Origin: an uncultured Chloroflexota bacterium
Lineage (GTDB): Bacteria > Chloroflexota > Limnocylindria > Limnocylindrales > CSP1-4
Length of the DNA: 64,000 nucleotides
NCBI GenBank assembly: GCA_947085195.1
Contig: CAMTVM010000004.1
Coordinates: forward strand, 1,624 to 65,623
Reading direction: 5' to 3'
Below the pieces are notes generated by a model that saw only the letters and a list, made by a program, of their open reading frames with translations, ran no database searches and was not told where the DNA came from. Below, piece by piece: positions 13,407 through 34,171 of the stretch (position 1 is the stretch's first letter; the number at the start of each line of letters is the position of its first letter). The translations under genes and the position numbers were made by a program.

Positions 13407-14433
13407 AGCGCGCGTACAGCGAGCGGGCGACCGCGACGTCGTCGGTGCCCTTGATGATCGCGCGGCCATCGGCGAACACGGTCATCTCGTGACCGTCGAC
13501 CACCGACCGGAGCAGGTAGTCGCTCGAGGTCACGGTCCCGGTGCCTGCGAGCTTGAGGGCCAGGACCCGGAGGTCGAGCCGAACGGCCCGACCCGGGCTC
13601 ACCTGGACGGCGTCGCGACCGCACAGCGTCGCCGTCCGGCTCGTGACCCTGGCCTCGAGATACTCGAAGCGGCGCTCGCCGCAGCACGGGCAGTCCGGTC
13701 GCCGGGGTACGCCCTCGGTGTGGAGGTGGTCGTTCGTCCACACGTCGAACGCGGTAACGCCGCGGCTGAGGTGCTCGCGGTCGCCGACGAGGAGCTTCAC
13801 TGTCTCGGTCCACTGCATCGCGGCGACGGTCACGACGGTCGACGCAAGCACGCCAGCGGTTTCGCAGGTCTCCATCGTGCCCGCCGGCTGGGGCGTCGGA
13901 AACAGGCACCGGAAGCACGCCGTGTCGCCGGGCAGAACCGTCATCGACATCCCGGTCGAGCCGACCGCGCCACCGTAGACCCAGGGAATGCCTGCTTTCA
14001 CGCAGGCGTCGTTGAGCAGGTAGCGCGTCTCGAGGTTGTCCGTGCCGTCGACCACGACGTCGGCCCGGGCGACCAGCGCCTCCACGTTGGCGGGGGTGAC
14101 ATCCGCGACGAGCGCCTCGACATCGACTCCGGCGTTGATCCGGCCGACGGCTTCGGCCGCCGCGACCGCCTTGGGCGACCCGGCCGCAGCGTCGGCCTCG
14201 TCGTACAACAGCTGGCGCTGGAGGTTGCTGAGTTCCACGAAGTCGCGGTCGACGACCACCAGGTGGCCCACCCCGGAACGTGCCAGCAGGTCAATCACCG
14301 AACAACCCAGGGCGCCACACCCGACCACGAGCACACGGCCCGCCGCGAGTCGCGCCTGTCCCTCGGTGCCGATGCCCCAGAACCGGGCCTGGCGCGAGTA
14401 GCGGTCCCCGGTCGCGGGGGTGCTGGGTGCCAC
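13393..14433 (-). CDS. moeB: ThiF/MoeB-family E1-like adenylyltransferase with CPCC zinc motif and 85-aa C-terminal extension of unknown fold
   Basis: Track ORF 13393..14628(-). DRYSRQARFWGIG... VLVVGCGALGC (Rossmann GxGxxG), DPDCPCCG. GTG start at 14433 inferred from family N-terminus. Confidence 0.75.
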   Translation of the reverse strand: MAPSTPATGDRYSRQARFWGIGTEGQARLAAGRVLVVGCGALGCSVIDLLARSGVGHLVVVDRDFVELSNLQRQLLYDEADAAAGSPKAVAAAEAVGRINAGVDVEALVADVTPANVEALVARADVVVDGTDNLETRYLLNDACVKAGIPWVYGGAVGSTGMSMTVLPGDTACFRCLFPTPQPAGTMETCETAGVLASTVVTVAAMQWTETVKLLVGDREHLSRGVTAFDVWTNDHLHTEGVPRRPDCPCCGERRFEYLEARVTSRTATLCGRDAVQVSPGRAVRLDLRVLALKLAGTGTVTSSDYLLRSVVDGHEMTVFADGRAIIKGTDDVAVARSLYARYVGT

Positions 14434-14708
14434 GTGGTGTCCTCTGCATCGATCGGGCGCACGACGCGTCCGCCTGGATCCGGCCCGTCGGCGGCTCGGA
14501 AGATCACACTCGCCGCGTGCCGAACCCGCCGGGTGCAGCACCGGGGACGCGCATCGGCTCGACGCCTCCCATTCCGCGGCACGACGCCCCGACCGGGTAG
14601 CGCCGTTCGGCCCGTTCCGCGCGGACATCCGGCCGGGGCAGCGCGGCCGCCCCGGTGTCCCGAGTCGTCGAGCACCGGAACGGGCGAGCGCAGCTCAACC
14701 GCTGCCGC

Positions 14709-14939
14709 TCACCCACCGCCGATCACCGGGAAGACCGCCAGGACGCTGCCGTCAGCGAGTCGGTCGTCAAACTCCACGTTGCGGCCGTTGACCATCATCA
14801 CCCCGACCTCGGGGCGCGGGATCTCGAGCTCGTCGACGATCTCGCCGACCGTCGGCGATTCCGGGTAGGCGCGCGTCTCGATGGCAAACCGGCCGCGCTG
14901 GAAGCTGGCGAACAGCTTGATCGTCAGCTGCACCGACAC
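14709..14939 (-). CDS. moaD: MoaD/ThiS-family sulfur-carrier protein ending in Gly-Gly
   Basis: In track ORF 14709..15056(-). VSVQLTIKLFASFQRGR...VLAVFPVIGGG; diglycine C-terminus, ~76 aa from GTG 14939. Confidence 0.7.
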   Translation of the reverse strand: MSVQLTIKLFASFQRGRFAIETRAYPESPTVGEIVDELEIPRPEVGVMMVNGRNVEFDDRLADGSVLAVFPVIGGG

Positions 14940-14967
14940 CTGCGCGTGGCCTCCGTCCCGGTCGCCG

Positions 14968-15504
14968 TCAGGCGGCGACACGTAGCAGGATCTCACGATC
15001 CAGGGCGATGCGCTCCAGGTCCGGATCCGGGCCCAGGATCCTGGCCGCCTCGTCATGGGCCAGCACGATCCCGCGGCGCAGGATCGAGGGGCCGACGCCC
15101 GGGATGATGAGGTTGAACAGCTTCACTCGGATGGTGGGGGCCGACTCTTCGTCGCGGCCACCCCCGTGGCCCTCGTGCCAGCTGACCTGGGCGCGCATCG
15201 CCGAGTAGTAGCTGGACCGGCGAAGCGTGGCCCCGACGAGCCCCGGCATCGCCGCCGAGAGCGTCAGGGTGGACCCGGGATGGAGCATGGCGCGGTCCAG
15301 GTCATCGACGACCATCGAGTCCACGAACACGGTCGCGATCACGTGGCGGACATAGTCGGGCTCGATCGCCAGGTCAACCGAGAGGAAGTCTGCGACCGAG
15401 CGCGGACCGGCGAGCGAGACGACGACGCCGCGCTGGAACAGCGCGCCCAGATCGCTCCAGCGCACGCGGTCGGCGGAGATGGTGAGGGTGACGGGATCGG
15501 TCAT
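14968..15504 (-). CDS. hypothetical protein (178 aa) between SHOCT-membrane gene and moaD
   Basis: C-terminal part of track ORF 14968..15888(-). MTDPVTLTISADRVRWSDLGALFQRGVVV... I recognise no family; upstream ORF part is Arg/Pro junk so start set at ATG 15504. Confidence 0.45.
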   Translation of the reverse strand: MTDPVTLTISADRVRWSDLGALFQRGVVVSLAGPRSVADFLSVDLAIEPDYVRHVIATVFVDSMVVDDLDRAMLHPGSTLTLSAAMPGLVGATLRRSSYYSAMRAQVSWHEGHGGGRDEESAPTIRVKLFNLIIPGVGPSILRRGIVLAHDEAARILGPDPDLERIALDREILLRVAA

Positions 15505-16450: not shown

Positions 16451-17862
16451 CTACGGCCGGACGGCCTCCATGCGATCGAGGATCAGGCGCTTGACGCCCT
16501 CGAGCGGCACCCGTTCCTGGGTCATCGAGTCGCGGTCGCGGACCGTGACCGCGCCGTCGTCGAGCGAGTCCACGTCAACCGTGACGCACCACGGCGTGCC
16601 GATCTCGTCCTGGCGCCGGTAGAGCTTGCCGATGGCGGCCGTGTCGTCGTAGACGGCCATCATGTCGCGCTTGAGGTCGCCCAGGAGACGGTGGCATATG
16701 TCCACGATCTCGGGGCGCTTCTTGAGCAGCGGCAGGACGGCCACCTTGTACGGTGCGATGTCCGGGTGCAACCCCAGGACCACGCGCGTCTCGCCGCGGA
16801 CCTCCTCCTCCCGATAGGCGTCGATGAGGAACGTGAACGCCGCACGGTCCGCGCCCGCCGCGGTCTCCACGACCCACGGGATGAAGTGCTCGCCGGACGC
16901 CTGGTCGAAGTACTCGAGGTTCTCGCCGGACGCCTTCGCGTGGTTGCCCAGGTCGAAGTCGCCGCGGTTGTGGATGCCTTCGAGCTCCTTCCAGCCGAAC
17001 GGGAAGCGGTACTCGACGTCGATCGCCTTCTTCGCGTAGTGCGCCAGCTCGTCGGGGGCGTGCTCTCGGAACCGGAGGCGGGCCGGGGTCACGCCGTAGG
17101 CCTCGTACCACGCCTTCCGCCTGGGCAGCCACTCCTCGAAGGCCTGCGAGGCGGCCTCACCGGGGCGCACGAAGTACTGCATCTCCATCTGCTCGAACTC
17201 CCGCATCCGGAACACGAAGTTGCCGGGCGAGATCTCGTTGCGGAACGACTTGCCGATCTGGGCGATGCCGAACGGGATCTTCCTGCGCGAGCTCTGCTGG
17301 ACGTTCTTGAAGTTGACGTAGCTGCCCTGCGCGGTTTCCGGGCGGAAGTAGACGATCGAGCCGTCGTCCTCGACGGGTCCCATGTGGGACGTGAACATGA
17401 GGTTGAACCGGCGCGGCGCCGACAGCGGCCCCGCGTCATTGGGGCAGACCAGGCCGAGGCGCCCGACGATCGTGTCGTCACGCAGGTCGGTCGCCGAGAG
17501 ATCCTCAGCGCCCGGCAGCTCGTCCAGGCGGAACCGGCGGCGGCAGGTCGCGCACTCCACGAGCGGGTCGCTGAACGAGCCGACGTGCCCCGACGTGATC
17601 CAGACCTGGGGGTGCATCAGGATCCCGGCGTCCAGGCCCACGATGTCGTTGCGGTCCTGGACCATCGCCCGCCACCAGGCGCGCTTGACGTTGTTCTTGA
17701 GCTCCACGCCCAGGGGTCCGTAGTCCCAGACGGCGTTGATTCCGCCGTAGATCTCCGATGACGGGAAGATGAAGCCGCGGCGCTTGGACAGGCTGACGAT
17801 GGTCTCGAGGTTCGCGACGGCGGGCGCGACGTCGCCCGGATCGAGGGATTCGGCGGTCACGG
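16451..17862 (-). CDS. glyQS: glycine--tRNA ligase (dimeric class II GlyRS)
   Basis: C-terminal 470 aa of track ORF 16451..18658(-). [11 protein letters not shown]...FRNEISPG...GADRAAFT match GlyRS. GTG start at 17862 with GGAGA upstream; earlier part is antisense junk. Confidence 0.9.
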
Positions 17863-18027
17863 GGTGGAGTCTCCGCTGATACGCGACCGTGGCATGGCCG
17901 CGCGGGACCCCGATCCTACCAGAGCCGCTGACGGCCCCCCAGGGAAGCGAGTCCGCGTGGAGTCGGCGACGCGCAGGGTCCGGCGGCCGCTGCCGCGCTG
18001 ACGTCGGGATCGCGCGCACCCTCCCGC

Positions 18028-18825
18028 TCATCGGCCGGTCTGGAACCGGTAGCCGAGCCCGTACTCGGTCGTGATGAACGTGCGACCCGGCGTCGCCGCG
18101 GCCAGCTTGGTCCGCAGGTTGCGCATGGTCACCCTCAGGAGCTGGATCTCGTCGCCGTATGTCGGCCCCCAGACCATGCGCAGCAGCTCGCCGTGCGTCA
18201 TGAGCTCGTCGGCGCGGCGGGCGAGGGACACGAGAAGCCGGAACTCGGTCGGGGTCAGGTGGACCTCCTGGGCGGAGCCCATCACCCGGTGGCCGCGCAG
18301 CTCGATCCGCAGCCCGGGATGCTCGATGACGTCGTCCGGGCGCGCCTCGTGCAGGTGGACCCGGCGGAACGCGGCCTGGATCCGTGCGACCAGCTCCGGG
18401 AAGCTCACGGGCTTCGTGAGGTAGTCGTCTGCGCCGGCGACGAGGCCGTGCACCACGTCCGACTCGGCGTCGAGCGCGGTGACCATGAGGATCGGTACGG
18501 TGCTCACGCTGCGGATCCACTCCGCGACCTGCCATCCGTCGAGGCCCGGGAGGTTGAGGTCGAGGAGCACGAGGTCCGGCTCCTCCTCCGCGAAGCGGCG
18601 CATGACCTCGTGGGCATCGCCCGCCAACGCGGTGCGCCAGCCGTGGCGATTGACCCACAGCTCGACGAGCTCCCGGAACTCGAGCTCGTCCTCGACGACG
18701 AGGACGAGCTCGCCGTTTCCCGGCACCGGGCGGGACGGGACGGGCGGCACGACGATCCGCCGGCCGTCCGGATGCCGCGTGCGTCCGGAATCGCCGTCGC
18801 CGCGCGATTCGCCGGACGCCGTCAC
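18028..18825 (-). CDS. OmpR/PhoB-family response regulator
   Basis: C-terminal 266 aa of track ORF 18028..19659(-). [14 protein letters not shown]...[12 protein letters not shown]...LTKP and winged-helix LTPTEFRLL...GYRF. GTGA overlap with kinase stop. Confidence 0.85.
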
Positions 18826-20492
18826 GACGCCTCCCCGAGCGCCTCGGGCGGAGCGGCCGGCAGGCTGAACGACACCGCGCTCCCGCCGCCCTCCGCCTCC
18901 ACCCAGATCCGCCCCCCGTGTGCCTCGATGAGGCGCCTGCAGACGTATAGCCCGAGGCCCGTCCCGGGCGTCCTGCCGTCCCGCGCGTTCCGGCCGCGGT
19001 AGAAGCGGTCGAACACGTGCGGCCGCTCCTCGGGCGGCACGCCCGGTCCGGTGTCGTGCACGGTGACGACGACGGCGCCCCGTTCGCCCCGCGCCGTCAC
19101 CGTGATCGGGCCGCCGTCGCCGTACTTGCGCGCGTTGTCCACGAGGTTCGCAAGGACGTGGCCGATCCGGAGCGGGTCGATCGCGACCGACGGCAGGTCC
19201 GGCGGGATGGCGACCCGGACCGGGCGCGCGCCGGGCGACTCCGCGAGGTCGTCGGCCAGCCGGGCGACGACCGACGGCAGGTGCACGACGGAGCGCTGGA
19301 GTAACGGGCCGGTGCTCTCGAAGCGAGTGAGCTCGAGCAGCTCGTCGACGAGCTCGGCCAGGCGCCCGGCCGCGTGGCCAATCCGCTCCACGGAGCGGCG
19401 CTGCGCATCCGCGTCCAGGTCGAGCGCGAGCAGGCTGTCCACGTAGCCGGAGATGAGCGCTAGCGGCGTCCGGAGCTCGTGGGAGACGGCGGCGAGGAAG
19501 CTCGCCCGGAGCTCCTCGACGGCGATCTCGGCGCGCGTGTCGCGCAGCACGACGACGGCGCCCCGCTCGGCGCCCGGCATGGCCGAGTACGACGCGGCGA
19601 CGGGGATCGCCGTGCCGTCGCGGCCGACCACGACGTGCTCGCACGCGATCGGCGCCCACGGGTGCTCCATCGCCTCCTCGAACCGGCAGCGCGGACCGCA
19701 GCGCAGCGAGCCACGGGCGGCGGTGCCCGGTCGCCCGTCCTCCCCTGGTTCGCCGGCGGTCGCGCCAGGCACGTCGTCAGGCGCGCAGCCGAGCACCTCG
19801 CGGCACGACCGGCTGGAGGGCACGACGGCCGTGCCGCCGAGCAGCGACATGGCGGCCCGGTTCACGCGCACGACCCGGCATCCCTCGTCCACCGCCACGA
19901 TCCCGTCGTTCGCGCCGTCGAGGATCGCCGCGAGCAGTGCCTGCTCCCCGGCCAGCGCGTGGCGGAGCTGGGCCGCCTGGAAGGCGATCGCCAGTTCGTG
20001 GCGTACCAGCGCGAGGAGCCGGACGCCCTCGGCCGGCAGGTCGTCGCCCGGCGGTGGCTGGAACGCGAGGTAGCCGACAAGCCGGCTGTCGAGGCTCCGC
20101 TCCCCGAGCCCGCGGCGCTCGTCGAGCGCGACGCCCCGCCACCCCGCGGCGCGGGTCCACGCGGCGGCGGTGTCCGCGCCGGCGAGCTCCTCCGGGAGCT
20201 GCGGGACGGCCTCGCCGGCCGGTTCACCGCCCGCGGGATCGTCTCCGACGACCGCGACGAGCCGCATCGAGCGCTCGCCGGTGGTGGACAGCCACAGGGC
20301 GCCCGCGGCCGCATCGGTCACCCGCACGAGCTCGGTCACCACCGAGGTGGCAAGCGCCCGCAGGTCCCCGCCGAGCGCGAGCAGCTGGCTCAGCTGGTAC
20401 TGCGCGAACACGGTATCCGCCTCGCGCTGCGCGTCGGCGAGGGGCGTGCGCCGGTCGCGGTCAGGACCGGCGACGCGATCTGCGGCCGTCAT
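18822..20492 (-). CDS. cytoplasmic sensor histidine kinase with GAF/PAS-like N-terminal region
   Basis: Track ORF 18822..20765(-). HisKA H-box [10 protein letters not shown], HATPase motifs [19 protein letters not shown]; no TM segments. Start at MTAADRV (ATG 20492) overlapping dhaL stop. Confidence 0.8.
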
Positions 20493-21229
20493 GCGCGCCG
20501 CCGCGCTGCGGGCTCGAGCATCGCCCGGATGAGAAGGAAGCACGAGGTCGCTCCGGGGTCCTGGTGCCCGCGGGAGCGCTCGCCCAGGCGCAGCGCGAGG
20601 CCCCGTCGCGCGATCATCGGCGTCGTCGCCCGCATGCCCGCGCGCGCCGCCGCCGCGGCGCGCCGGAGCGCATACACGGCGTCGCGGCCATCCGCCACGG
20701 CAGAGGCATAGGCGTCCGCGGCCGGCCGCAGCGCGTCGAAGATCGTCTTGTCGCCGAGCCGGCACCGCCCGCGGCGGGCGACCCCATGCGCGGCGGCATC
20801 GAGCGCCCGGGCGATCCCGGCGAGCGTGACCACCGGCCCTTCCGGGATGGCGAGGCCCGCCTCGGTGAACGCGGTCCCGTACAGCGAGCCGCCCGCGCCC
20901 CCGACGTTGGCCACGACGAGCGAGCCCAGCCGCCGCAGGAGCTCCCCGACATCGTCAGCGGCCGCGTCCGGGCGCGCCGAACCGTCGGGCGCCGCAAGCG
21001 CACGCACGGCGTGCCCGAACCCGACGGTCATGTTCTCGCCGTGGTCGCCGTCCCCGAGCGCGGCGTCCAGCCGGTCCAGCAGCCGCCGGTGGCGGACCAG
21101 CAACCGCTCCGCGCGCGCGACGAAGGCCAGCACCTCGACCGCGGTGACGGCGCGCTCGGCGATGTCGTCGGTTACCCGCGGGCCGACGTCCTGCGCACGG
21201 TCGCGGTCCACGTCGATGCGCCTGCTCAT
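20489..21229 (-). CDS. dhaL: DhaL-domain protein (ADP-binding subunit of dihydroxyacetone kinase), paralog 1, first gene of dhaL-HK-RR operon
   Basis: C-terminal 247 aa of track ORF 20489..21889(-). LDAALGDGDHGENM ... [10 protein letters not shown]-like [16 protein letters not shown]. Confidence 0.8.
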   Translation of the reverse strand: MSRRIDVDRDRAQDVGPRVTDDIAERAVTAVEVLAFVARAERLLVRHRRLLDRLDAALGDGDHGENMTVGFGHAVRALAAPDGSARPDAAADDVGELLRRLGSLVVANVGGAGGSLYGTAFTEAGLAIPEGPVVTLAGIARALDAAAHGVARRGRCRLGDKTIFDALRPAADAYASAVADGRDAVYALRRAAAAARAGMRATTPMIARRGLALRLGERSRGHQDPGATSCFLLIRAMLEPAARRRA

Positions 21230-21312
21230 GGCCTCCGCTAGTGTATGGTGCGGGACCCCCGCCGTCGGCGGCGATCGCCCGGGGGCAGCCCGCAGCCAGG
21301 AGGGGCGCGCAG

Positions 21313-21717
21313 ATGGTGGGGCTTGTCCTCGTTGCGCACAGCGCCGAGCTCGTCCGCGGCCTTGCGGCGATGGTCCGCCAGGCGGCGCCTGCCGTGCCGG
21401 TCGAGGGCGCCGGCGGGCTGAGCCACGGGCGCCTGGGGACGAGCGCACCGGACGTGGCCGCGGCGCTCGCGCGCGCGCTCGCCGCTGGCGAGGACGGCGT
21501 GCTCGTGTTCCTCGATCTCGGCAGCGCTGGCATGGCGGTGGAGCTCGCGCTCGAGACCCTCGAGCCCGGCGACCGGAGGCGGATCCGCGTGACCGACGCG
21601 CCGATCGTCGAGGGCGCGGTGCACGCCGCGATCGCGGCCGCGGCGGGGGACGACCTCGACGCGGTCGTGGCCGCGGCGGACCTCGGCGGCCGCGCCCCGA
21701 AACGGCCCGCCGGCTGA
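21313..21717 (+). CDS. dhaM: DhaM-like phosphotransfer protein (EIIA-mannose-family domain only)
   Basis: In track ORF 21241..21717(+). MVGLVLVAHSAELVRGL...; AGGAGG SD before ATG 21313. Confidence 0.65.
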   Translation: MVGLVLVAHSAELVRGLAAMVRQAAPAVPVEGAGGLSHGRLGTSAPDVAAALARALAAGEDGVLVFLDLGSAGMAVELALETLEPGDRRRIRVTDAPIVEGAVHAAIAAAAGDDLDAVVAAADLGGRAPKRPAG

Positions 21718-22397
21718 TGGACGCTCCGGCCGTCGGGGTACGCGGGGCGCTCGGCGCGCGGGTGGTCGAGCGCTGGCTGCGCCTGGCGGCCGCGGCGATC
21801 CACGAACAACGCGACTGGCTGACCGCGCTCGACGCGGCCATCGGGGACGGAGACCACGGGATCAACCTCGATCGCGGGTTCGCGGGCATCCTCGCCGACC
21901 TCGACGACCCCGACCGCGCCGGAGCCCGCGCATCGTCGGGGACGCTGCTCGTCGCCGCCGGGCGCCGCGTGCTCGGGCTCGTCGGCGGCGCCAGCGGCGC
22001 GCTCTACGGCCGCGCGCTCATCAGGGCCGGAGAGCGCCTCGGCGACGATGCATGGGGCGTGGAGGCCGCCGTCGCGGGGTTTGACGCGGCTCTCGACGCG
22101 GTCGTGTCGCTCGGCCACGCCACGGTTGGCGACAAGACGCTGGTCGATGCGCTCGCCCCGGCACGCGACGCGCTGCGGGTCGCGGGACCAGGGATGGACC
22201 TCCCGACCGCGCTGCGCCGGGCGGCCGACGCCGCGGAAGGCGGGGCGCTGGCGACCGTCCCCCTCGTCGCGCGGAAGGGCCGGGCGAGCTACCTCGGCGA
22301 GCGGTCTGCGGGCCACCAGGATCCCGGGGCCGCGTCGACGGCGATGCTCGTCCGGTGCCTCGCGGACGCGGCCGCGGCCGAGGTCGCCGGCCCCTGA
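21717..22397 (+). CDS. dhaL: DhaL paralog 2
   Basis: C-terminal 226 aa of track ORF 20748..22397(+). LDAAIGDGDHGINLDRGF ... [21 protein letters not shown]. Overlaps dhaM stop. Confidence 0.8.
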   Translation: MDAPAVGVRGALGARVVERWLRLAAAAIHEQRDWLTALDAAIGDGDHGINLDRGFAGILADLDDPDRAGARASSGTLLVAAGRRVLGLVGGASGALYGRALIRAGERLGDDAWGVEAAVAGFDAALDAVVSLGHATVGDKTLVDALAPARDALRVAGPGMDLPTALRRAADAAEGGALATVPLVARKGRASYLGERSAGHQDPGAASTAMLVRCLADAAAAEVAGP

Positions 22398-22705
22398 GTT
22401 CCGGGTTGCGGTGCGGTTGCGAGCCGGTTGTCGACGAGATGTACGAAGTCTTGAGATTTGTCCGGCCGGGGGGCCCGTAGCATGGCTCCAAGCCACCCAT
22501 CCGGATGGGTCGTGTTTCCCGGTGTGCCCCTGCGGAGAAAGCCCGAAGGGGGACCGGCTCCGGTCGGAAAGGAGGACGCCACCGAGCGATCTCGCACCGG
22601 TTCCCGCCTGCGCGGCGCCCGGTCGACGACCGCGAGCAGCCGGCGACGGCACCGGGTCCGTCGTGGCCCGCCAGCGGGCTATCCACCAATGAGGGAGTGC
22701 ATGGC

Positions 22706-23434
22706 ATGACGTGGGATATGAACATCTTCATCGCGGAGGTCTTCGGGACTGGGTTCCTGATCCTCCTCGGTGACGGCGTGGTCGCAGGCGTCCTGCTCGC
22801 CAAGTCCAAGGCGCAGAACGCGGGCTGGATCGTCATCACTGCCGCATGGGCGTTCGCCGTGTTCGTCGGCGTCAGCGTCGCCGGACCGATCAGCGGGGCG
22901 CACATCAACCCGGCCGTCACCATCGGCCTCGCGGTAAACGGCAGCCTCGCACTTGGGCTGGTGCCGGTGTACATCATCGGCCAGTTCGTCGGCGCGTTCA
23001 TCGGCGCCACCCTGGTCACGATCCACTACTGGGATCATTTCAAGCAGACCGAGGACCAGGGTCTCAAGCTCGCGGTGTACAGCACCGGGCCGGGCATCCG
23101 CAACATCCCGCTGAACGTCGTGTCCGAGATCATCGGCACGTTCGTGCTCGTGTTCGTCGTGATGGCGTTCGGCAACAACCAGGGCCTGGCCGGGCTCGGC
23201 CCGCTAGCTGTCGCCCTGCTCGTGTTCTCGATCGGCATGTCGCTCGGCGGGACCACCGGCTACGCGATCAACCCTGCCCGCGACCTGGGGCCGCGGATCA
23301 TCCACGCCATCCTGCCCGTCCCGGGCAAGGGCGGCTCCGACTGGGAGTACAGCTGGGTGCCGGTCGTCGGGCCGATCACCGGCGCCGTGCTCGCGGCGGT
23401 CGTCTACCTCGCCATCTGGAAGCCCCTGTTCTAG
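22706..23434 (+). CDS. glpF: aquaglyceroporin / glycerol uptake facilitator
   Basis: C-terminal part of track ORF 22505..23434(+). Two NPA boxes (HINPAVT, INPARD); GAGGGAG SD before ATG 22706. Confidence 0.85.
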   Translation: MTWDMNIFIAEVFGTGFLILLGDGVVAGVLLAKSKAQNAGWIVITAAWAFAVFVGVSVAGPISGAHINPAVTIGLAVNGSLALGLVPVYIIGQFVGAFIGATLVTIHYWDHFKQTEDQGLKLAVYSTGPGIRNIPLNVVSEIIGTFVLVFVVMAFGNNQGLAGLGPLAVALLVFSIGMSLGGTTGYAINPARDLGPRIIHAILPVPGKGGSDWEYSWVPVVGPITGAVLAAVVYLAIWKPLF

Positions 23435-23521
23435 CTCGCACGGCCACGGGGCGCGCCCGGTCACCGGGTGACGGCGCGCCCCGGACCCCGAGCCCGGCGT
23501 CCGTCGGCCACAGGAGGAACG

Positions 23522-24520
23522 ATGAAGAAGCTCATCAACGCACCCGATCACGTCGTGGACGAGGCACTCGCTGGGATGCTCGCCGCACATCCGGAGCTCA
23601 TCCGGGTCGAGGCGCCGAACATCGTTGTCCGCAGGGACGCGCCCCGGCCCGGCAAGGTCGGGGTGATCTCGGGCGGTGGCTCGGGTCACGAGCCGATGCA
23701 CGGAGGATTCGTCGGGCTGGGCATGCTCGACGCCGCCTGTCCGGGCGCGGTGTTCACCTCGCCGGTCCCCGACCAGATGCTCGCCGCCACCAAGGCTGTG
23801 GACGCCGGCGCCGGGGTCCTGCACATCGTCAAGAACTACACCGGCGACATCATGAACTTCGAGCTCGCGGCCGAGATGGCCCGGGCAGAGGGACACGAGG
23901 TCTCGGCGGTCGTCATCGCCGACGATGTCGCCGTCAAGGATTCGCTGTACACGGCCGGCCGGCGGGGCGTCGGCGGCACGGTGCTCGCGGAGAAGATCGT
24001 CGGCGCGGCTGCCGAGGCGGGTGCGGATCTCGCGACCGTCACGGCGCTCTGCCAGCGCGTCCAGGACAACGTCCGCTCGATGGGCATGGCGCTCACGAGC
24101 TGCACGGTCCCGGCCGCCGGCAAGCCGACGTTCGAGATCGGCGACGACGAGATGGAGATCGGCGTCGGCATCCACGGAGAGCCCGGGCGCACGCGCATGA
24201 AGGTCGCGAGCGCCGACGAGATCACCGGGATGCTCGCCGGGCCCATCCTCGACGACCTCCCCTACCAGCGCGGCGACCGCGTCCTCGCGTTCGTCAACGG
24301 CATGGGCGGCACGCCGCTCATCGAGCTCTACGTCGTGTTCAACAGCCTCGCGCAGATCCTCGAGGGGCGCGGGATCACGATCGCGCGCAGCCTCGTCGGC
24401 AACTGGATCACGTCGCTCGACATGGCCGGGTGCTCGATCACGCTCCTGCGGCTCGACGACGAGATGCTCCGCTACTGGGATGCTCCGGTCATGACCCCCG
24501 CCCTGCGGTGGGGAATCTGA
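23522..24520 (+). CDS. dhaK: dihydroxyacetone kinase DhaK subunit
   Basis: In track ORF 23468..24520(+). [19 protein letters not shown]...[12 protein letters not shown]...; AGGAGG SD. Confidence 0.9.
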
Positions 24521-24569
24521 CCGTCCGCCCAACACCATCACCTCCTACTGGCCGAAAGGACACACGGGC

Positions 24570-25211
24570 ATGGCGTCACGCTTCGCCTACGCCGACGCGA
24601 TCGCCTGGATCCAGTTGCTCGCGCAGGTGCTGCGCGACGCGAAGGAGGAGCTCACGGCCCTCGACTCCGCGATCGGCGACGCCGACCACGGGATCAACAT
24701 GGACCGCGGGTTCCAGGCGGTGCTCGCCAAGCTGCCGACCTACCCCGAGGGGGATGTCGGCGCGCTGCTCAAGGGCGTCGGCATGACGCTCGTGTCCACC
24801 GTCGGCGGCGCCAGCGGCCCGCTCTACGGGACCTTCTTCCTCCAGCTCGGCGGTGCCACCGCCGGGAAGGCGGAGGCCGAGCCCGCGGAGCTGGCCGGCG
24901 CGCTGGACGCCGGCGTCGCCGGGATCCAGCGGCTGGGCAAGGCCGAACCCGGCGACAAGACCATGCTCGACGCGCTGATCCCCGCCCGCGACGCGATGCG
25001 GGCCGCCGTCGACCAGGGGGCGTCGGTCGCCGACGCCCTCGCCGCGGCCGTCGCCGCCGCGGAGCAGGGCATGCTCGCCACCATTCCGCTCGTGGCCCGC
25101 AAGGGACGCGCGAGCTATCTCGGAGAGCGCAGCGCGGGCCACCAGGACCCGGGCGCAACCTCCTCCTACCTGCTGCTCAAGGCCGCATGGGACGCCTTGT
25201 CCAGGGTGTGA
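24570..25211 (+). CDS. dhaL: DhaL paralog 3
   Basis: Track [21 protein letters not shown] ... [21 protein letters not shown]. Confidence 0.85.
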
Positions 25212-25242
25212 CCATGGCCTCGGGCGAACACGGGAGTGCAAC

Positions 25243-26739
25243 ATGACCAAGTACGTTGGCGCCCTCGACCAGGGCACGACGAGCACCCGGTTCATGGTCT
25301 TCGACCACGCCGGCGGCGTCGTCGCGATCCACCAGAAGGAGCACGAGCAGATCTACCCGAAGCCCGGCTGGGTCGAGCACGACCCGATGGAGATCTGGGC
25401 GCGCAGCCAGGAGGTCATCGCGGGCGGGCTCCAGAGGGCCGGCATCACTGGATCCGACCTCGCGGCCGTCGGCATCACCAACCAGCGCGAGACCACCGTC
25501 GTATGGGACAAGACGACGGGCAAGCCGGTCTACAACGCGATCGTGTGGCAGGACACCCGCACGGACGTCTACGTCAACGAGTTCAGCAAGGACGGCGGCC
25601 AGGACCGCTTCCGGGCGAAGGTCGGCCTCCCGCTCGCCACCTACTTCTCGGGCCCGAAGGTCAGGTGGGTCCTGGACAACGTCGAGGGTGCGCGCGCCAA
25701 GGCCGACGCCGGAGACCTCCTGTTCGGCAACATCGACACGTGGTGCATCTGGAACCTCACCGGCGGCGTCAACGGCGGCGTGCACGTCACGGACGTGACC
25801 AACGCCAGCCGCACGATGCTCATGAACCTCGCGACCCTCGACTGGGACGACGAGATCCTGGGCATCATGGGCATCCCGAAGTCGATGCTCCCGGCGATCA
25901 AGGCCTCGTCCGAGGTCTACGGGACGGGCGTCGGCGATCTCGCGGGCGTGCCGATCGCCGGCGATCTCGGCGATCAGCAGGCGGCCCTGTTCGGCCAGAC
26001 GTGCTTCTCGCCCGGAGAGGCGAAGAACACCTACGGCACCGGCAACTTCATGCTCCTCAACACGGGCACCAAGGCTGTCCAGTCCAAGAACGGCCTGCTC
26101 ACCACCCTGGGCTACCAGATCGGCGACCAGCCGGCCGTGTACGCCCTCGAGGGCTCGATCGCCATCACCGGCGCGCTCGTGCAGTGGCTCCGGGACAACC
26201 TGGGGATGATCACCTCGTCGGCCGAGGTCGAGGCGCTGGCCAAGACCGTGGACGACAACGGCGGCGTCTACTTCGTCCCGGCGTTCTCCGGCCTGTTCGC
26301 GCCGTACTGGAAGAGCGACGCCCGCGGCGTCATCGCCGGCCTGACCCGCTACGTCAACAAGGGCCACATCGCGCGTGCCGTCCTCGAGGCGACCGCGTGG
26401 CAGACCCGTGAGGTGCTCGACGCGATGAACGCCGACTCCGGCGTTGATCTCACGGCCCTCAAGGTCGACGGCGGCATGGTCTTCAACGACCTGCTGATGC
26501 AGTTTCAGGCCGACGTCCTCGGCGTCCCGGTCATCCGGCCGAAGGTCGCGGAGACCACGGCCCTGGGCGCCGCCTACGCGGCCGGCCTCGCGGTCGGCTA
26601 CTGGGCGGAGGTCGAGGACCTGCGGGCCAACTGGGCCAAGGACAAGGAGTGGCAGCCCGCCATGGACGCGGCCACCAGCGAGAAGGACTACGGCTTCTGG
26701 AAGAAGGCGGTAACCCGCACCTTCGACTGGGTCGAGTAG
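25243..26739 (+). CDS. glpK: glycerol kinase
   Basis: Track [20 protein letters not shown]...[13 protein letters not shown]... classic FGGY/GlpK. Confidence 0.9.
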
Positions 26740-26812
26740 TCCCCGTTCGGCGAACCCGACGGCCCCGGCCCCTACCAGGGGTCCGGGGCCGTCACCTTAG
26801 TGAGGGCACACC

Positions 26813-27220
26813 GTGAGCCCGGAACCCGTCGCATACGTCGGCCTCGTCGTCGTCTCGCACTCCGCCCGGATCGCGGAGGGCACGGTTGAGCTCGCCCGGC
26901 AGATGGCCGGGTCGGACGTCCCCATCGTGCCCGCCGGCGGCATGGCCGACGGCGCCATCGGCACCGATGCCGCGCGCATCGCGGCGGCGATCGGCGAAGC
27001 CGACCGTGGGGCCGGCGTGGTGGTCGTCGCGGACCTGGGCAGCGCCATCCTCGCGACCCGCACCGCCCTTGAGCTGCTCGGCGGCCCGGAGCACGTCCGG
27101 CTGTCCCGGGGACCGCTCGTCGAAGGTGCGATCATCGCGGCCGTACAGGCGAGCACCGGCTCGGGCCTGGACGAGGTCCTGGAGGCAGCCGAGGGTGCCG
27201 CCTTCCTGCCCAAGGGCTAG
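26813..27220 (+). CDS. dhaM: DhaM-like EIIA-family phosphotransfer protein, paralog 2
   Basis: Track ORF. VGLVVVSHSARIAEG... parallel to 21313..21717 product. Confidence 0.65.
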   Translation: MSPEPVAYVGLVVVSHSARIAEGTVELARQMAGSDVPIVPAGGMADGAIGTDAARIAAAIGEADRGAGVVVVADLGSAILATRTALELLGGPEHVRLSRGPLVEGAIIAAVQASTGSGLDEVLEAAEGAAFLPKG

Positions 27221-27299
27221 AGTTGGACCGGTCCGCCGGCGCGACGGGACCGGCGAGTGACGCAGCCCGGGGCGCACTGACCCGCGGGCACGCAGCGAG

Positions 27300-28994
27300 G
27301 TGACCATCATGGCGGTGCCGCACACCGCGGACGTGCTCGTCATCGGGGGAGGCGCAACCGGCGCCGGCGTCCTCCGGGACCTGGCCCGCCGCGGGCTGCG
27401 CGGGCTGCTCGTCGAGCGGGGGGACTTCGCGACGGGCACGACCGGGCGCTACCACGGGCTGCTCCACTCCGGCGGCCGCTACGTGGCCAAGGACCAGCTC
27501 GCCGCGCGCGAGTGCATCGACGAGAACCGGGTGCTCCGGCGGATCGCGCCCGCGAGCATCGAGGACACTGGCGGCTACTTCATCGCGACGCCCGACGACC
27601 CCGACGACTACGTCGAGGCGTTCGCCGACAACTGCAATGCCAGCGGCGTGGACTGCGACGAGGTCAAGGTCGCGGACCTCCTGGCCAGGGAGCCGGCGCT
27701 CAACCCGAAGACCCGCCGGGCATTCCGCGTACCGGACGGCTCCATCGAGCCCTGGATGCTGGTCGAGTCGATCATCGCGGACGCCCGCCGGCACGGCAGC
27801 GAGGCGCTCACCTACCACCGCGTCATCGGCATGGAGGTCCAGGCGAACCGGATCACCGAGGTGGCCCTGCGCGACGAGCGAACCGGCTCGGTCTCGCGGG
27901 TCTGGACCAGGTTCGTGATCTCCGCGGCCGGGGCCTGGGCGGGCCAGATTGCGGCCTTCGCGAACGTCAGCCTTGAGATGACGCCCGGCAAGGGGACGAT
28001 GCTGATCTACAACCACCGGATGACCGACGCGGTGATCAACCGCTGTCATCGCTCGTCCGACGGCGACATCATGGTCCCCGTCCACACCGTCGCGATCCTC
28101 GGCACCACCGACATCAAGGTCCCCGATCCGGACGACAGCGAGGTCACCCGCGCGGAGGTCGAACGCCTCGTGAGCGAGGGTGCGAAGATGTTTCCGGACC
28201 TGCCGCGGATGCGCATCCTGCGCGCCTATGCGGGCGTGCGGCCGCTCTACCAGCCCCCCGCCGATGCGATCCCAGGCGTGGGCAACCGCTCGATCTCCCG
28301 GGCACACGCGATCCTCGACCACGCCGACCAGGGCGTTGACAACTTCGTCTCGATCGTCGGTGGCAAGCTCACGACCCACCGGCTCATGGCCGAGCAGACC
28401 GTGGACGTCGCCGCGGGCAAGCTGGGCGTCACGACACCCTGCACGACGGCCGACGAGATTCTCCCCGACCAGGAGGCCGGCCACACCTACTGGTTGGGCC
28501 ACCGGCTCGCGGATCACGAGGCGGAGGGGGGCGGCGACGCGGACCTGCTGTGCGAGTGCGAGCTCGTGTCGCGGTCCATGGTGGACGCATACCTGGCCCG
28601 GCACTGGCCGTGCAGCATCGACGACGTCCGGCGCGGGACGCGCGTGGGGATGGGGCCCTGCCAGGGGGCGTTCTGCACGTTCCGGATCGCCGGCCTGGTG
28701 GCGGAGCGCCTGGACGCGCATACCGCGACCACCGGCCGGCCAGCCCCCGGGACGCACGACGCGGACGGACACGGCCCGGGGTCCGGCGCGGCGCACGCCG
28801 CCGTCGCCGACCGCGCGCTGACGGCGTTCCTGCGCGAACGGTTCAAGGGCACCCGGCCGATCGCCTACGGGCGGCAGCTCCAGGAGCTGCTGATGACGAA
28901 CGGCATCTACGTGGGCGTGCTGGGGCTCGACTCGATGGCGTCCGCTCCCGCCCCGCTCGGCGCCGGCGAGGAGGTGCTCGATGCCGCACGCTGA
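27300..28994 (+). CDS. glpA: anaerobic glycerol-3-phosphate dehydrogenase subunit A (FAD, with C-terminal BFD-like Cys domain)
   Basis: Track ORF. ADVLVIGGGATGAG, TGTTGRYHGLLHSG, C-terminal CECELV...CQGAFC. Alternative ATG start 27309. Confidence 0.85.
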   Translation: MTIMAVPHTADVLVIGGGATGAGVLRDLARRGLRGLLVERGDFATGTTGRYHGLLHSGGRYVAKDQLAARECIDENRVLRRIAPASIEDTGGYFIATPDDPDDYVEAFADNCNASGVDCDEVKVADLLAREPALNPKTRRAFRVPDGSIEPWMLVESIIADARRHGSEALTYHRVIGMEVQANRITEVALRDERTGSVSRVWTRFVISAAGAWAGQIAAFANVSLEMTPGKGTMLIYNHRMTDAVINRCHRSSDGDIMVPVHTVAILGTTDIKVPDPDDSEVTRAEVERLVSEGAKMFPDLPRMRILRAYAGVRPLYQPPADAIPGVGNRSISRAHAILDHADQGVDNFVSIVGGKLTTHRLMAEQTVDVAAGKLGVTTPCTTADEILPDQEAGHTYWLGHRLADHEAEGGGDADLLCECELVSRSMVDAYLARHWPCSIDDVRRGTRVGMGPCQGAFCTFRIAGLVAERLDAHTATTGRPAPGTHDADGHGPGSGAAHAAVADRALTAFLRERFKGTRPIAYGRQLQELLMTNGIYVGVLGLDSMASAPAPLGAGEEVLDAAR

Positions 28995-30318
28995 CATCGT
29001 CGTCATCGGCGCCGGGCTCGCCGGGCTCGTCGCGGCCACGCGCCTGGCGGAGGCCGGAGCGGTCGTCACGCTCGTTGCGAAGGGCCACGCCGGGACCCAC
29101 TGGGGCGCCGGCGGCCTGGACGTGGCGGCCCCAGCGGGCGCGGGCACGCCGGCCCAGGGCGTCCGTCACCTCGCGTCGCTGGACCACCCGTACGCCTTCC
29201 TAGCGCCGGACGCGGCGCCATCGGTGGCCTGGCTCCTCGAGCGCCTCGCGGACTCCGGGCTCCCGTACGCGGGCACGCTCGACGCGCCGATCCGGCGCGT
29301 GCCGACGGCGATCGGCGGGACGCGGCGCGTGGCCATCGTGCCCGGCGCACAGGCGCCAGCGCTCCGCCCCTGGGACCCGGGGGAGATCCTCGTCGTCGCC
29401 GGGCCGGCGGGCTTCAAGGACTTCTGGCCGGCCGCAATCGCCGACAGCCTCTCCCGAGAGGACGTGTGGCTCGGCGAGGACCGTCCGGCGCTGGTGCGGG
29501 GGGTCGCCGTCGAGCTGCCGGGCCTCGGCTCGCAGCGCAACCTCAACGCCCTCGCGCTGGCGCACCGGTTCGAGGATCCGGCTCGGCGGGCTGACGACCT
29601 CGACCGGTTCGCGCTGGCCGTGGAGCGCGCGGCGGGTGGCGGCCAGGGGCGCGTCGCGCTCCCGGCGGTGTTCGGTCTCGAGCGCCACGGGGACGTCTGG
29701 GCAGAGCTCAGGGCCCGGCTGCCGCTGGAGCCGTTCGAGGTGCCGCTCGTGCCGCCGAGCATTCCCGGGATGCGCCTGTGGCAGGCGCTTCGCCGCCGGA
29801 TCCGCGACGCGGGCGGCCGAGTGCAGGTCGGCGAGGCGGTTGCCCGGATCGAGGTCGAGCACGGCCGCGTCACCGCAGTCGAGATGGAGGCCGCGACGCG
29901 ACGCCACCGCATCCGGACCTACGCGGTCGTCCTCGCGACCGGCGGACTGGCGGGCGGCGGGCTGGTGGCGACGGCCCACGGCCTCGTGGTCGAGCCGCTC
30001 CTCGGCCTCCACGTCGAGGCGCCGGGCGTCGACGCCTGGCTCATGCGCGATGCGCTCGACCCGGCGGGCCACCCCATCGAGGCCGCCGGCATCCGGACGG
30101 ACCCGGCGCTGCGTCCCCTGGATCCCGCGACGGGGCGCGCCGCCTTCCCCAACGTGCTCGTTGCGGGCGCCATGCTCGTCGGCCAGCGCGCGCTCCGGGA
30201 GCGGTGCGGTGACGGGATCGCCGTCGCCAGCGGCTGGCGGGCGGCCAACGAGCTGGCCGCGGACGCCACGAGGATCCCGATCGACCGCGCGCTGCCCGCC
30301 GTGAGGACCGACCAGTGA
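28981..30318 (+). CDS. glpB: anaerobic glycerol-3-phosphate dehydrogenase subunit B
   Basis: Track ORF. ADIVVIGAGLAGLVAA N-terminal FAD motif; position between glpA and glpC. Confidence 0.8.
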   Translation: MPHADIVVIGAGLAGLVAATRLAEAGAVVTLVAKGHAGTHWGAGGLDVAAPAGAGTPAQGVRHLASLDHPYAFLAPDAAPSVAWLLERLADSGLPYAGTLDAPIRRVPTAIGGTRRVAIVPGAQAPALRPWDPGEILVVAGPAGFKDFWPAAIADSLSREDVWLGEDRPALVRGVAVELPGLGSQRNLNALALAHRFEDPARRADDLDRFALAVERAAGGGQGRVALPAVFGLERHGDVWAELRARLPLEPFEVPLVPPSIPGMRLWQALRRRIRDAGGRVQVGEAVARIEVEHGRVTAVEMEAATRRHRIRTYAVVLATGGLAGGGLVATAHGLVVEPLLGLHVEAPGVDAWLMRDALDPAGHPIEAAGIRTDPALRPLDPATGRAAFPNVLVAGAMLVGQRALRERCGDGIAVASGWRAANELAADATRIPIDRALPAVRTDQ

Positions 30319-31652
30319 CCATCGCCGATCTCGTCCGGGAGGCGGCCGAGGACCGGCACGTGTCGGCCTCGGCGGATGAATGCCTCAAGTGCAACGTCTG
30401 CAACACCGTCTGCCCCGTCCTGCGCGTGACGGACCTGTTCGCGGGACCGAAGTACGAGGGTCCCCAGGCCCAGCGGTTCCGTCTCGCCGGGCTGCAGCAG
30501 ATCCAGGTCCCGGAGTCGACGCACCCCAGGTCTCCCGATCACTCGGTGGACTATTGCTCCGGCTGCGGCTGGTGTACGTCCGCGTGCCCGGCCGGCGTGA
30601 AGATCGCCGAGATGAACAACCAGGCCCGTGGCCGGCTGCGCGAGGGCAAGCGCCCCAGGCTGCGCGACTGGACCCTGGGCCAGACCGACCTGACCGGGTC
30701 GATGGGCGTCCTGTTCTCCCCCCTCGCCAACTTCGCCTTTCATAACCGCGTCGTGCGCGCGGCGTTCGAGGTGGCGATCGGCGTCCACCGCAAGGCGCCC
30801 TTCCCGCAGTTCGCCAAGCGCACGTTCCAATCGACCTGGAAGAAGCGCCAGGCGAAGCGGCTCGATGGCGGCACCCTCAAGAACCGCCCGGGACCCGACA
30901 AGGCCGTCGTGTACTTCCACGGCTGCTCTGCAAACTACTACGAGCCACACGTGGCCGAGGCCGCGATCTGGGTGCTCAAGCGGAATGGCTTCGAGACGAT
31001 CGTCCCGGAGCAGGTCTGCTGCGGCCTCCCGCTGATCAGCAACGGCCTCTACGACGACGCGCGCGAGCGCGCCTGCAGGAACAACGCGGTCCTCGCGGAG
31101 TACGCGCGGGCGGGCTACAAGATCGTGGGCACGTCCACGTCCTGCACCCACACGCTCAAGGCCGAGTACGAGGAGATGCTCGACATGCGTGACGACGACA
31201 CGAAGGCCGTGTCGCACGCGACATGGGATATCTGCGAGTTCCTGCTCGACCTCCACGATGAGGGTCGCCTAGACACCGGGTTCGGCCGGCTCGACGAGGA
31301 CCTCCCCTACCACGCGCCCTGCCAGCTCCGGAGCCACGGCATCGGGCTGCCGGCGCTCGACCTGTTCGCGCTCGTCCCAGGCCTCCGGGCGCGCGACATG
31401 GACCACGACTGCTGCGGCATCGCGGGCACGTACGGGATGAAGAAGGAGAAGTACGACATCGCGATGAAGGTCGGCGCGCCACTGTTCGAGAAGGTGCGTG
31501 CGTCTGGCGCGACCAGCGCGGCCTGCGACTCCGAGACGTGCCGCTGGCAGATCGAGAAGGCGACCGGTGTGCGCACGCGTCACCCGGTGGAGATCCTGCT
31601 CGATGCGTATCGGGCGGGCGACGGCACGAGCTCCGGGCCGCCCGTGCGCTGA
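30315..31652 (+). CDS. glpC: anaerobic glycerol-3-phosphate dehydrogenase subunit C (Fe-S, CCG domains)
   Basis: Track ORF. CLKCNVCNTVCP and CSGCGWCTSACP ferredoxin motifs plus CCG-type Cys clusters. Confidence 0.85.
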   Translation: MTIADLVREAAEDRHVSASADECLKCNVCNTVCPVLRVTDLFAGPKYEGPQAQRFRLAGLQQIQVPESTHPRSPDHSVDYCSGCGWCTSACPAGVKIAEMNNQARGRLREGKRPRLRDWTLGQTDLTGSMGVLFSPLANFAFHNRVVRAAFEVAIGVHRKAPFPQFAKRTFQSTWKKRQAKRLDGGTLKNRPGPDKAVVYFHGCSANYYEPHVAEAAIWVLKRNGFETIVPEQVCCGLPLISNGLYDDARERACRNNAVLAEYARAGYKIVGTSTSCTHTLKAEYEEMLDMRDDDTKAVSHATWDICEFLLDLHDEGRLDTGFGRLDEDLPYHAPCQLRSHGIGLPALDLFALVPGLRARDMDHDCCGIAGTYGMKKEKYDIAMKVGAPLFEKVRASGATSAACDSETCRWQIEKATGVRTRHPVEILLDAYRAGDGTSSGPPVR

Positions 31653-31781
31653 GTGGCGGGCGCCGCCGCGCGCGGCGCGCACGGTCTCGAGACCAAGGTC
31701 CCGATCGGGTGCCGATCGGGATCCGACGATGGTCGGATGGACTCTGGCATCGGACGGTCAGCCCACCGATCATCGATCGGG

Positions 31782-32963: not shown

Positions 32964-32964
32964 C

Positions 32965-33764: not shown

Positions 33765-34171
33765 GGATGCGGTCGGAGTCGGGTCGGGCGGACGAAGCGC
33801 GCCGGCGGGGGGTCGCAGGCTGGTTCGACCCGCGCGGTCGACGGCTCGGGGGCTGGGCGTTCGCGCTCAACCGGCTGACCGGGCTCGGCGTCCTCGTCTA
33901 CCTCTACCTCCACCTCGCGATCCTGTCCCGGCTCGCCGGTGGACCGGAAGCGTGGGACGCGTTCGTCGACTTCGCGCTCCACCCGCTCGTCAAGGTCCTG
34001 GACGTCGTCCTGCTCGCCGGCCTGCTCGTCCACGGCCTCAACGGGATCCGGGTGACGCTCGTGGGGCTCGGGATCGTGGTGAGCCGGCAGCGGGCGCTGT
34101 TCGTGGCGCTGATGATCGTGGCCGCCTTGGTGCTCGTGATCGGCACCGTGCGCATCTACGGGGTGATGTGA
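33761..34171 (+). CDS. SdhC-like membrane anchor / cytochrome b subunit
   Basis: In track ORF 33527..34171(+). ATGA overlap with preceding gene; three hydrophobic helices, RLTGLGVLVYLYLHL motif. Confidence 0.6.
   Translation: MRMRSESGRADEARRRGVAGWFDPRGRRLGGWAFALNRLTGLGVLVYLYLHLAILSRLAGGPEAWDAFVDFALHPLVKVLDVVLLAGLLVHGLNGIRVTLVGLGIVVSRQRALFVALMIVAALVLVIGTVRIYGVM

Follow-up and report, generated by a model that had tools for sequence, protein, structure and literature searches.

A 64,000-nucleotide stretch of contig CAMTVM010000004.1 from an uncultured Chloroflexota bacterium (assembly GCA_947085195.1), referred to below as the window, raises the question of why a gene for DhaL, a subunit of dihydroxyacetone (Dha) kinase, should head a two-component signalling operon. 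On the minus strand, a diverged dhaL paralog (dhaL1) is followed by genes for a soluble sensor histidine kinase and an OmpR/PhoB-type response regulator. These three genes are tightly packed and divergent from a dhaM-dhaL-glpF-dhaK-dhaL-glpK-dhaM-glpABC block. We propose, with a probability of about 0.6, that DhaL1, as a non-catalytic, nucleotide-binding co-sensor, uses the kinase to act on the dha/glp genes. The genomic signal for this reading is unusually clean, and the function is inferred throughout.

An earlier sequence-only reading of this DNA had described the order of the three genes and their two translational overlaps, and when the sequence was re-read its coordinates matched exactly. 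The dhaL1 gene begins with an ATG at 21229-21227 and ends with a TGA at 20491-20489, and the kinase ATG (20492-20490) lies on this stop in an ATGA overlap. Likewise, the regulator GTG (18825-18823) lies on the kinase TGA (18824-18822) in a GTGA overlap, and the regulator stop is at 18030-18028. One public gene call places the dhaL1 start six codons downstream, which gives a protein of 240 residues. The G+C content of the window is about 70-78%. The same reading had called the kinase cytoplasmic, and we found that its highest 19-residue Kyte-Doolittle mean was 1.18, compared with 2.33 for a GlpF control, which supports this description: the protein lacks a hydrophobic segment. It had also named the divergent genes as dhaM-dhaL-glpF-dhaK-dhaL-glpK, in agreement with our Pfam and tblastn results.

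Conservation of this neighbourhood was examined in two directions. In the forward scan, DhaL1 was used as the query against one genome per species, which yielded 80 loci with 95 DhaL regions, and the neighbouring genes were located by tblastn with the proteins of the window. A region was called DhaL1-type when it scored higher to DhaL1 than to DhaL3, the dhaK-adjacent copy of the window. By this definition 8 of the 95 regions were DhaL1-type, and a kinase was found downstream on the same strand in exactly those 8 and in 0 of the other 87. The kinase started within a few nucleotides of the dhaL1 stop in these loci (56 nt in one of them, L068), the similarity spanned the whole kinase including its sensor, and the regulator came next wherever the contig continued. 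All eight hosts are Chloroflexota metagenome-assembled genomes, labelled Chloroflexia or Candidatus Limnocylindrales. The overlap between the dhaL1 stop and the kinase start was kept in 11 of 12 genome loci.

In the reciprocal scan, metagenome contigs were searched with an alignment of the kinase sensor alone, and 80 loci were recovered. A DhaL1-type gene lay directly upstream of the kinase in 75 of the 77 loci with at least 150 nt of upstream sequence, and in 61 of the 63 with at least 750 nt. The regulator was downstream of the kinase in all 60 testable loci. In 48 of 49 testable loci the operon faced a divergent dhaM, which bears out the earlier statement that it is divergent from a dha operon. 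Two loci with 37-42% sensor identity (L081 and L082) showed a Dak2-kinase-regulator order with 4-nt overlaps, opposite a complete dhaM-ptsH-glpF-dhaK-dhaL-ptsI operon. The order was also kept in the deeper relatives L165, L167 and L168, whose kinases carry an additional N-terminal PAS domain. Conservation of dhaL beside HisKA kinases, the check that the sequence-only reading had proposed, was thus strong both ways and extended to deep relatives, and the arrangement is more than chance in both search directions.

One further locus, L166 (198-4013), carries a Dak1 (DhaK-like) gene in place of the Dak2 gene, upstream of a related kinase (P0371) and a regulator. The dihydroxyacetone-binding residues H56, D109 and H218 of this Dak1 protein are intact. 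Because Dak1 fills this position in L166 and Dak2 does so elsewhere, the slot upstream of the kinase family is held, in the loci examined, by a paralog of either Dha kinase subunit.

We next considered the identity of DhaL1 itself. It matches Pfam Dak2 over the full length of the profile (positions 2-174 of 174; 1e-42) and the E. coli DhaL structures 2BTD and 3PNL at 1.5e-29. Against the NCBIfam equivalog TIGR02365, with a cutoff of 138.3 bits, DhaL1 passes marginally at 155.8 bits, compared with 186.1 for DhaL2 and 244.4 for DhaL3, and public sources annotate DhaL1-type proteins as plain DhaL. Both the passing score and the plain name would fit an adjacency that is fortuitous or an annotation artefact, with DhaL1 an ordinary or decaying duplicate of DhaL beside an unrelated two-component system. 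We regard this explanation as hardly credible: the co-occurrence is reciprocal and holds down to about 35% kinase identity, the overlaps are conserved, the dhaL1 open reading frame is intact, its clade-specific residues are 100% conserved, and the kinase-linked DhaLs form a clade of their own. Two features that define DhaL are missing from DhaL1, namely GRASY and a place beside dhaK; its downstream neighbours are the kinase and the regulator, and the dhaK-adjacent copy is DhaL3.

The residues of 117 kinase-linked DhaL1 homologs were compared with those of 68 canonical DhaLs from the fetched loci, with E. coli numbering. The Mg- and nucleotide-binding positions known from E. coli DhaL, namely D30, D35, D37, H38, GGAxG, K128-T129 (GDKT), D132 and DPGATS, were 93-100% conserved in the 117 clade members. 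The role of the Asp triad in DhaL has been described previously (PMC9136124 and PMC10848957). The RKGRASY motif was invariant in the canonical set (68/68), and all 117 clade members had RRGL-A-(L/M)-R at this place. In the clade, R178 is replaced by Leu (100%), S180 by Leu or Met and Y181 by Arg, with Q-Y in deep relatives; DhaL1 itself reads G-L-A-L-R. A second change, A123C (Cys156 in DhaL1), was invariant in 117/117 and lies inside a basic ARRGRCR segment, and T27D, P82S, K66R and K122R were further fixed changes of the clade. The deep relatives L165 and L167 retained both RRGRC and G-L-A-M.

The replacement of GRASY followed the genomic context closely. A kinase was downstream of 94/94 regions with G-L-A-(L/M)-R and of 0/79 with GRASY (some loci were counted twice). 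L. lactis DhaL (3CR3) and the ATP-dependent kinase of C. freundii (1UN9) have GRASY as well, so that the motif seems to be generally required in Dak2 domains with catalytic activity. In a neighbour-joining tree (no bootstrap), 30 of 30 kinase-linked DhaLs formed an exclusive clade that included the sister and deep lineages, with E. coli DhaL, DhaL2, DhaL3 and 40 canonical sequences outside it. The earlier description of DhaL1 as a dedicated paralog is supported by this exclusive clade and by the loss of GRASY with retention of the Mg/ADP-binding residues.

The kinase that follows dhaL1 has intact catalytic boxes (HELRTPL with H338, DTGPG and GTGLG). Pfam detected PAS_8 at residues 186-219, HisKA at 329-393 (9.7e-16) and HATPase_c at 439-547 (8.4e-32), and no GAF domain; the protein reaches no named NCBIfam kinase equivalog. 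An AlphaFold model built with 74 homologs (mean predicted local distance difference test score 86.9) showed an N-terminal helix at residues 3-40, a GAF-like domain at 44-145, a 40-residue linker helix at 154-195 and a PAS domain at 197-318. The same architecture was shared by a family of 112 close homologs, and a profile search of 1.84 billion representatives gave 34 matches at E <= 1e-30. Within the N-terminal helix the motif FAQYQLSQL (residues 29-37) is invariant, and the deepest relatives have a version of it, F-A-L-Y-Q-I-(T/S)-Q.

The PAS domain contains a cluster of cysteines, C230/C236/C265/C269 (C-x5-C ... C-x3-C), that is kept even in the deepest relatives. C230, C236 and C269 were present in 74/74 homologs and C265 in 57/74, the sister clade having a His one position earlier. 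In the AlphaFold model these residues sit in helices that hold cofactors in other PAS sensors, and the cluster is likely a Zn or Fe-S site, acting as a structural element or as a second input. A four-ligand Cys site in a PAS domain is known from NreB, a soluble O2 sensor kinase that binds a [4Fe-4S] cluster there. The kinase of the window would resemble NreB in this respect, with a Cys spacing (C-x5-C ... C/H-x3-C-P/R-F) that differs from that of NreB.

These features raise the alternative that the two-component system senses a signal of its own, whether a metabolite bound in the GAF pocket or a redox, O2 or metal signal at the Cys3(Cys/His) site, and that DhaL1 is co-transcribed cargo, an alternative or specialised kinase subunit under autoregulation. 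The three invariant cysteines with their fourth Cys/His ligand in cofactor-holding helices, the GAF fold and two related kinases that lack an adjacent dhaL1 would all suit such a system, and a redox input would make sense for a regulated block that includes the anaerobic glpABC genes. What it leaves unexplained is that a canonical DhaL is never the upstream gene, which is always a diverged paralog with GLALR and RRGRC, that dhaL1 and the kinase are translationally coupled, and that another lineage has a DhaK paralog in this position. Moreover, a canonical DhaL already adjoins DhaK in every locus with enough sequence. We therefore consider cargo status unlikely. Self-sensing by the kinase and co-sensing by DhaL1 may also be combined in a two-input sensor.

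Another alternative is that DhaL1 modulates the kinase independently of its ADP/ATP state, as a constitutive scaffold or anti-kinase titrated by DhaK or DhaM, or through Cys156 sharing a metal site with the PAS cysteines. Here the invariance of Cys156, the retention of RRGRC in deep relatives and a kinase with only three strictly invariant cysteines would be accommodated, and loss of GRASY could impair phosphoryl transfer from DhaM and leave the nucleotide state static. The strong conservation of the full Mg/nucleotide-binding set argues that the nucleotide matters, and the Cys motif of the kinase is retained in its Dak1-linked relative in L166, which has no DhaL as a neighbour. In our judgement this second alternative is quite improbable, and we continue with DhaL1 as a nucleotide-binding co-sensor of the kinase.

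The output of the system is a regulator with Response_reg (5.8e-27) and Trans_reg_C (5.5e-18) domains. It falls below all NCBIfam equivalog cutoffs, the best being MtrA with 189 against a required 300 bits, and its N-terminal extension of about 40 residues is not conserved. A scan of 17700-22800 found neither consensus sigma-70 promoters nor intrinsic terminators. In the window's own branch, a TACACT or TAGACT box stands 9-11 nt before the dhaL1 start, and a TACACT-type box is found upstream in sister loci too. This closeness to the start suggests that the dhaL1-kinase-regulator mRNA is leaderless or nearly leaderless, and the GGAGG that precedes dhaL1 may have no part in ribosome binding. On the plus strand, a TAGTGT overlaps the reverse complement of this box and could serve as the -10 element of dhaM1.

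A more regular pattern was found in the sister subfamily, where about 19 loci have direct repeats, two or three per intergenic region, at a spacing of exactly 11 bp (TCTTGA-N5-TCTTGC-N5-TCTTGA, reading toward dhaM). Loci with TCTTG(A/C) repeats are L014, L081, L082, L117, L130, L132, L134, L141-L143, L148, L153, L157, L162 and L164. A conserved -10-like hexamer, (G/C)A(G/C)(C/G)AT, lies 12 nt past the last repeat, before dhaM. Direct repeats at 11-bp spacing just upstream of a -10 element are typical of OmpR/PhoB-type activator sites such as the pho box; the layout of the TCTTG(A/C) repeats is alike, the repeat sequence is unrelated, and the window has one copy only. By their layout, the sister-subfamily repeats are the best candidate target of the regulator.

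Upstream of glpF, six aligned loci share GTCTTGA, a spacer of 23 nt and TAG(A/C)(G/A)T (22448-22483 in the window). The TCTTGA in this arrangement lies one 11-bp step further from the -10 element than the last repeat of the sister clade. For a regulator site in the window, we consider this position a better candidate than the 83-bp spacer between dhaL1 and dhaM1, judging from the sequence. The apparent glpF leader is about 220 nt long and includes GCGAAAGGAGGAGCCACCGGAGGAG, a block conserved across five to six loci. No Rfam family matched in the window, and the conserved leader gave no convincing consensus fold. The block could be a small upstream open reading frame or a protein-binding leader.

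To our knowledge, trigger-enzyme control of dha transcription is known only with one-component regulators, namely DhaR in E. coli and DhaS/DhaQ in L. lactis. Small soluble proteins that shift the kinase/phosphatase balance of sensor kinases are familiar from other systems, such as PII (GlnB) with NtrB and EIIA-Ntr with KdpD and PhoR, and they report metabolism or the phosphotransferase system (PTS) by their ligand or phosphorylation state. The folds of PII and EIIA-Ntr are unrelated to that of DhaL, and we know of none among them that is an enzyme-subunit paralog from the same operon.

The closest parallel in working is E. coli DhaR, which is bound by the Dha kinase subunits DhaK and DhaL and is controlled by the ADP/ATP load of DhaL (PMC10084136; PDB 4LRX/4LRY/4LRZ). 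As with DhaR, the regulator genes are divergent from the dha operon, the sensing module combines GAF and PAS (here GAF-helix-PAS), and a Dak2 or Dak1 protein is the constant partner gene of the sensor. DhaR is a one-component activator with AAA+ and helix-turn-helix domains and is partnered with catalytic DhaL, whereas the output here is HisKA/HATPase with a separate OmpR-type regulator, the partner is a dedicated paralog without GRASY, and the lineage is Chloroflexota rather than Enterobacteria. Homology of the sensors at the sequence level was not demonstrable. A phmmer search against PDB gave no match. A profile-profile hhalign comparison of the kinase sensor with the sensor of DhaR, DhaR(N), gave a probability of 20% (E 1e-3), collinear over 210 columns, and in structure comparison DhaR(N) was one of many equally good generic GAF/PAS matches.

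The second parallel is L. lactis DhaQ, a DhaK paralog described as co-activator of the TetR-family dha regulator DhaS (PMC7590123, citing Christen et al. 2006). On that description, both systems place a dedicated Dha kinase subunit paralog beside a dha regulator, and here too the paralog is proposed to be a sensor and not an enzyme. DhaQ, as described there, is a Dak1 protein that binds dihydroxyacetone and partners a TetR-family protein, whereas DhaL1 is a Dak2 protein whose partner is a histidine kinase; the Dak1-kinase-regulator locus L166 would be the closer analogue of DhaQ. In its proposed working the DhaL1-kinase system is thus an analogue of DhaR with DhaL/DhaK and of DhaS with DhaQ, and a member of neither. 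The sequence-only reading had not been aware of any description of such a coupling, and we likewise found no paper on DhaL or Dak2 with a histidine kinase in the full-text literature searched, which leaves most subscription journals outside.

In the mechanism that we propose, DhaL1 would be loaded with Mg-ADP/ATP, as predicted from its Asp triad, His, Gly-rich loops, GDKT and DPGATS, and the remodelled nucleotide-side surface (RRGRC; GLALR for GRASY) would reflect that catalysis with DhaK has been abandoned. DhaL1 would dock on the kinase sensor, formed by the invariant N-terminal helix together with the GAF domain and linker helix. Phosphorylated DhaM from the PTS would set the phosphorylation state of the DhaL1-bound nucleotide, by analogy with DhaL-ADP and DhaR in E. 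coli, and this state would be drained when DhaK holds dihydroxyacetone, either directly or by competition with catalytic DhaL. The same analogy predicts that the nucleotide state shifts the kinase/phosphatase balance. The phosphorylated OmpR-type regulator would then activate the adjacent dha/glp genes, and its binding site in the sister subfamily would be the three direct TCTTG(A/C) repeats, at 11 bp spacing, beside the dhaM promoter. A metal or redox signal probably enters as well, through the Cys3(Cys/His) site of the PAS domain.

Observed directly are the order of the genes, their overlaps, the domains, the residue pattern, the single clade and the near-perfect reciprocal co-occurrence; the steps of the scheme are predictions and differ in strength. 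That the kinase specifically reads the phosphorylation state of DhaL1-bound ADP/ATP, charged by the PTS via DhaM, is an idea drawn from the E. coli system that we consider less likely than not. Tentatively, we also extend the scheme to a Chloroflexota two-component family in which Dha kinase subunit paralogs (usually DhaL, in one lineage DhaK) would act as protein co-receptors, forming a PTS-to-histidine-kinase relay without a small-molecule ligand, combined with a metal or redox signal at the Cys-cluster PAS domain.

Several observations weigh against DhaL1 as a co-sensor of the kinase. The kinase has plausible sensing sites of its own in the GAF pocket and the Cys-cluster PAS domain. That DhaL1 is non-catalytic is an argument from residue conservation. 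Two sister loci, L097 (1-4461) and L127 (1-2877), have the kinase and the regulator without an adjacent dhaL1; in L097, glpF-dhaK is the immediate divergent neighbour of the kinase, whose N-terminus is extended by a long Pro/Arg-rich stretch. The searches gave no true DhaL-kinase fusion, and the top 120 DhaL1 homologs are all single-domain proteins. The sister-clade motif CAAGAAGAAAGCAA had no match in the window even at 3 mismatches, the dhaL1-dhaM1 spacer showed no repeats of a regulator box, and the TCTTGA upstream of glpF is weak evidence for a regulator site because it is a single copy in the window. Finally, a tblastn search of the 64-kb window for an HPr or Enzyme I gene gave none, with a spurious or weak match only.

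Five proteins from the profile search (P0330, P0314, P0332, P0346 and P0343) had appeared to be Dak2-kinase fusions. They were rejected as frameshift or indel artefacts of high-GC assemblies because of their out-of-frame Arg/Pro-rich stretches.

If DhaL1 is a co-sensor of the kinase, the sensing logic of the dha system would have been moved onto two-component signalling by linking a conserved DhaL pseudo-enzyme to a histidine kinase. DhaL1 would then add a new kind of accessory protein to the cytoplasmic sensors known for kinases, and the locus would define how phosphoryl flux through the PTS can reach a response regulator, in a phylum that is little studied and largely uncultured. The GLA(L/M)/RRGRC signature splits regulatory from catalytic DhaL copies in every locus examined, and annotation pipelines name both 'DhaL'.

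Table 1. Features of the dhaL1 locus and its divergent neighbours, in window coordinates.
Feature	Coordinates	Strand	Description
dhaL1	20489..21229	(-)	Regulatory-type DhaL paralog, 246 residues; Pfam Dak2 1e-42
Sensor histidine kinase, soluble	18822..20492	(-)	556 residues; PAS_8, HisKA and HATPase_c by Pfam
OmpR/PhoB-type response regulator	18028..18825	(-)	265 residues if the start is the GTGA overlap; Pfam Response_reg and Trans_reg_C
DhaL1 Asp triad D55/D60/D62 and H63	about 21041-21067	(-)	
DhaL1 RRGRCR	20759-20776	(-)	Clade-specific; residues 152-157
DhaL1 RRGLALR	20588-20608	(-)	Residues 208-214, in place of RKGRASY
Kinase N-terminal helix motif	20376-20408	(-)	Residues 29-39, containing FAQYQLSQL
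Kinase PAS Cys cluster	19686-19805	(-)	C230/C236/C265/C269
Candidate dhaL1-kinase-regulator promoter	21240..21245	(-)	-10-like TACACT, 10 nt upstream of dhaL1 ATG
Candidate promoter/operator of glpF-dhaK-dhaL3-glpK-dhaM2-glpABC	22449..22483	(+)	TCTTGA 22449-22454; -10-like TAGCAT 22478-22483
Apparent glpF leader	22484-22705	(+)	
dhaM1	21313-21717	(+)	EIIA-man only; TIGR02364 above cutoff
dhaL2	21717-22397	(+)	Pfam Dak2; canonical RKGRASY; TIGR02365 above cutoff
glpF	22706-23434	(+)	tblastn to relatives; Pfam MIP in relatives' loci
dhaK	about 23522-24520	(+)	Pfam Dak1
dhaL3	24570-25211	(+)	Pfam Dak2; dhaK-adjacent copy
glpK	25243-26739	(+)	Pfam
dhaM2	26813-27220	(+)	Pfam; second DhaM
glpA	27300-28994	(+)	Pfam
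glpB	28981-30318	(+)	Pfam
glpC	30315-31652	(+)	Pfam

DhaL occurs three times in the window, DhaM twice and DhaK once (Table 1). The dhaM1 and dhaL2 genes are joined through a TGATG overlap, with no dhaK adjoining, and a gap of 308 bp separates dhaL2 from glpF. This extra pair was limited to the window's subfamily (L001, L002, L004, L005 and L059). DhaL2 keeps RKGRASY and is diverged elsewhere, for example at K122H and T86R. From Pfam and from synteny in relatives, the genes from glpF to glpC (22706..31652) are likely the candidate regulated set.

The glpABC genes are followed, at 31653-34314 on the plus strand, by genes for a second FAD oxidoreductase of the DAO family and for an iron-sulfur protein (Fer2_3); with these two, the block for glycerol-3-phosphate oxidation may reach beyond glpABC. 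A few kilobases past the glycerol/glycerol-3-phosphate block are two tandem PlsY-type glycerol-3-phosphate acyltransferase paralogs (35725-36354 and 36427-37104, plus strand). Elsewhere in the window, at 13393-15056 on the minus strand, a ThiF/MoeB-type E1-like gene adjoins a gene for a ThiS/ubiquitin-like small protein.

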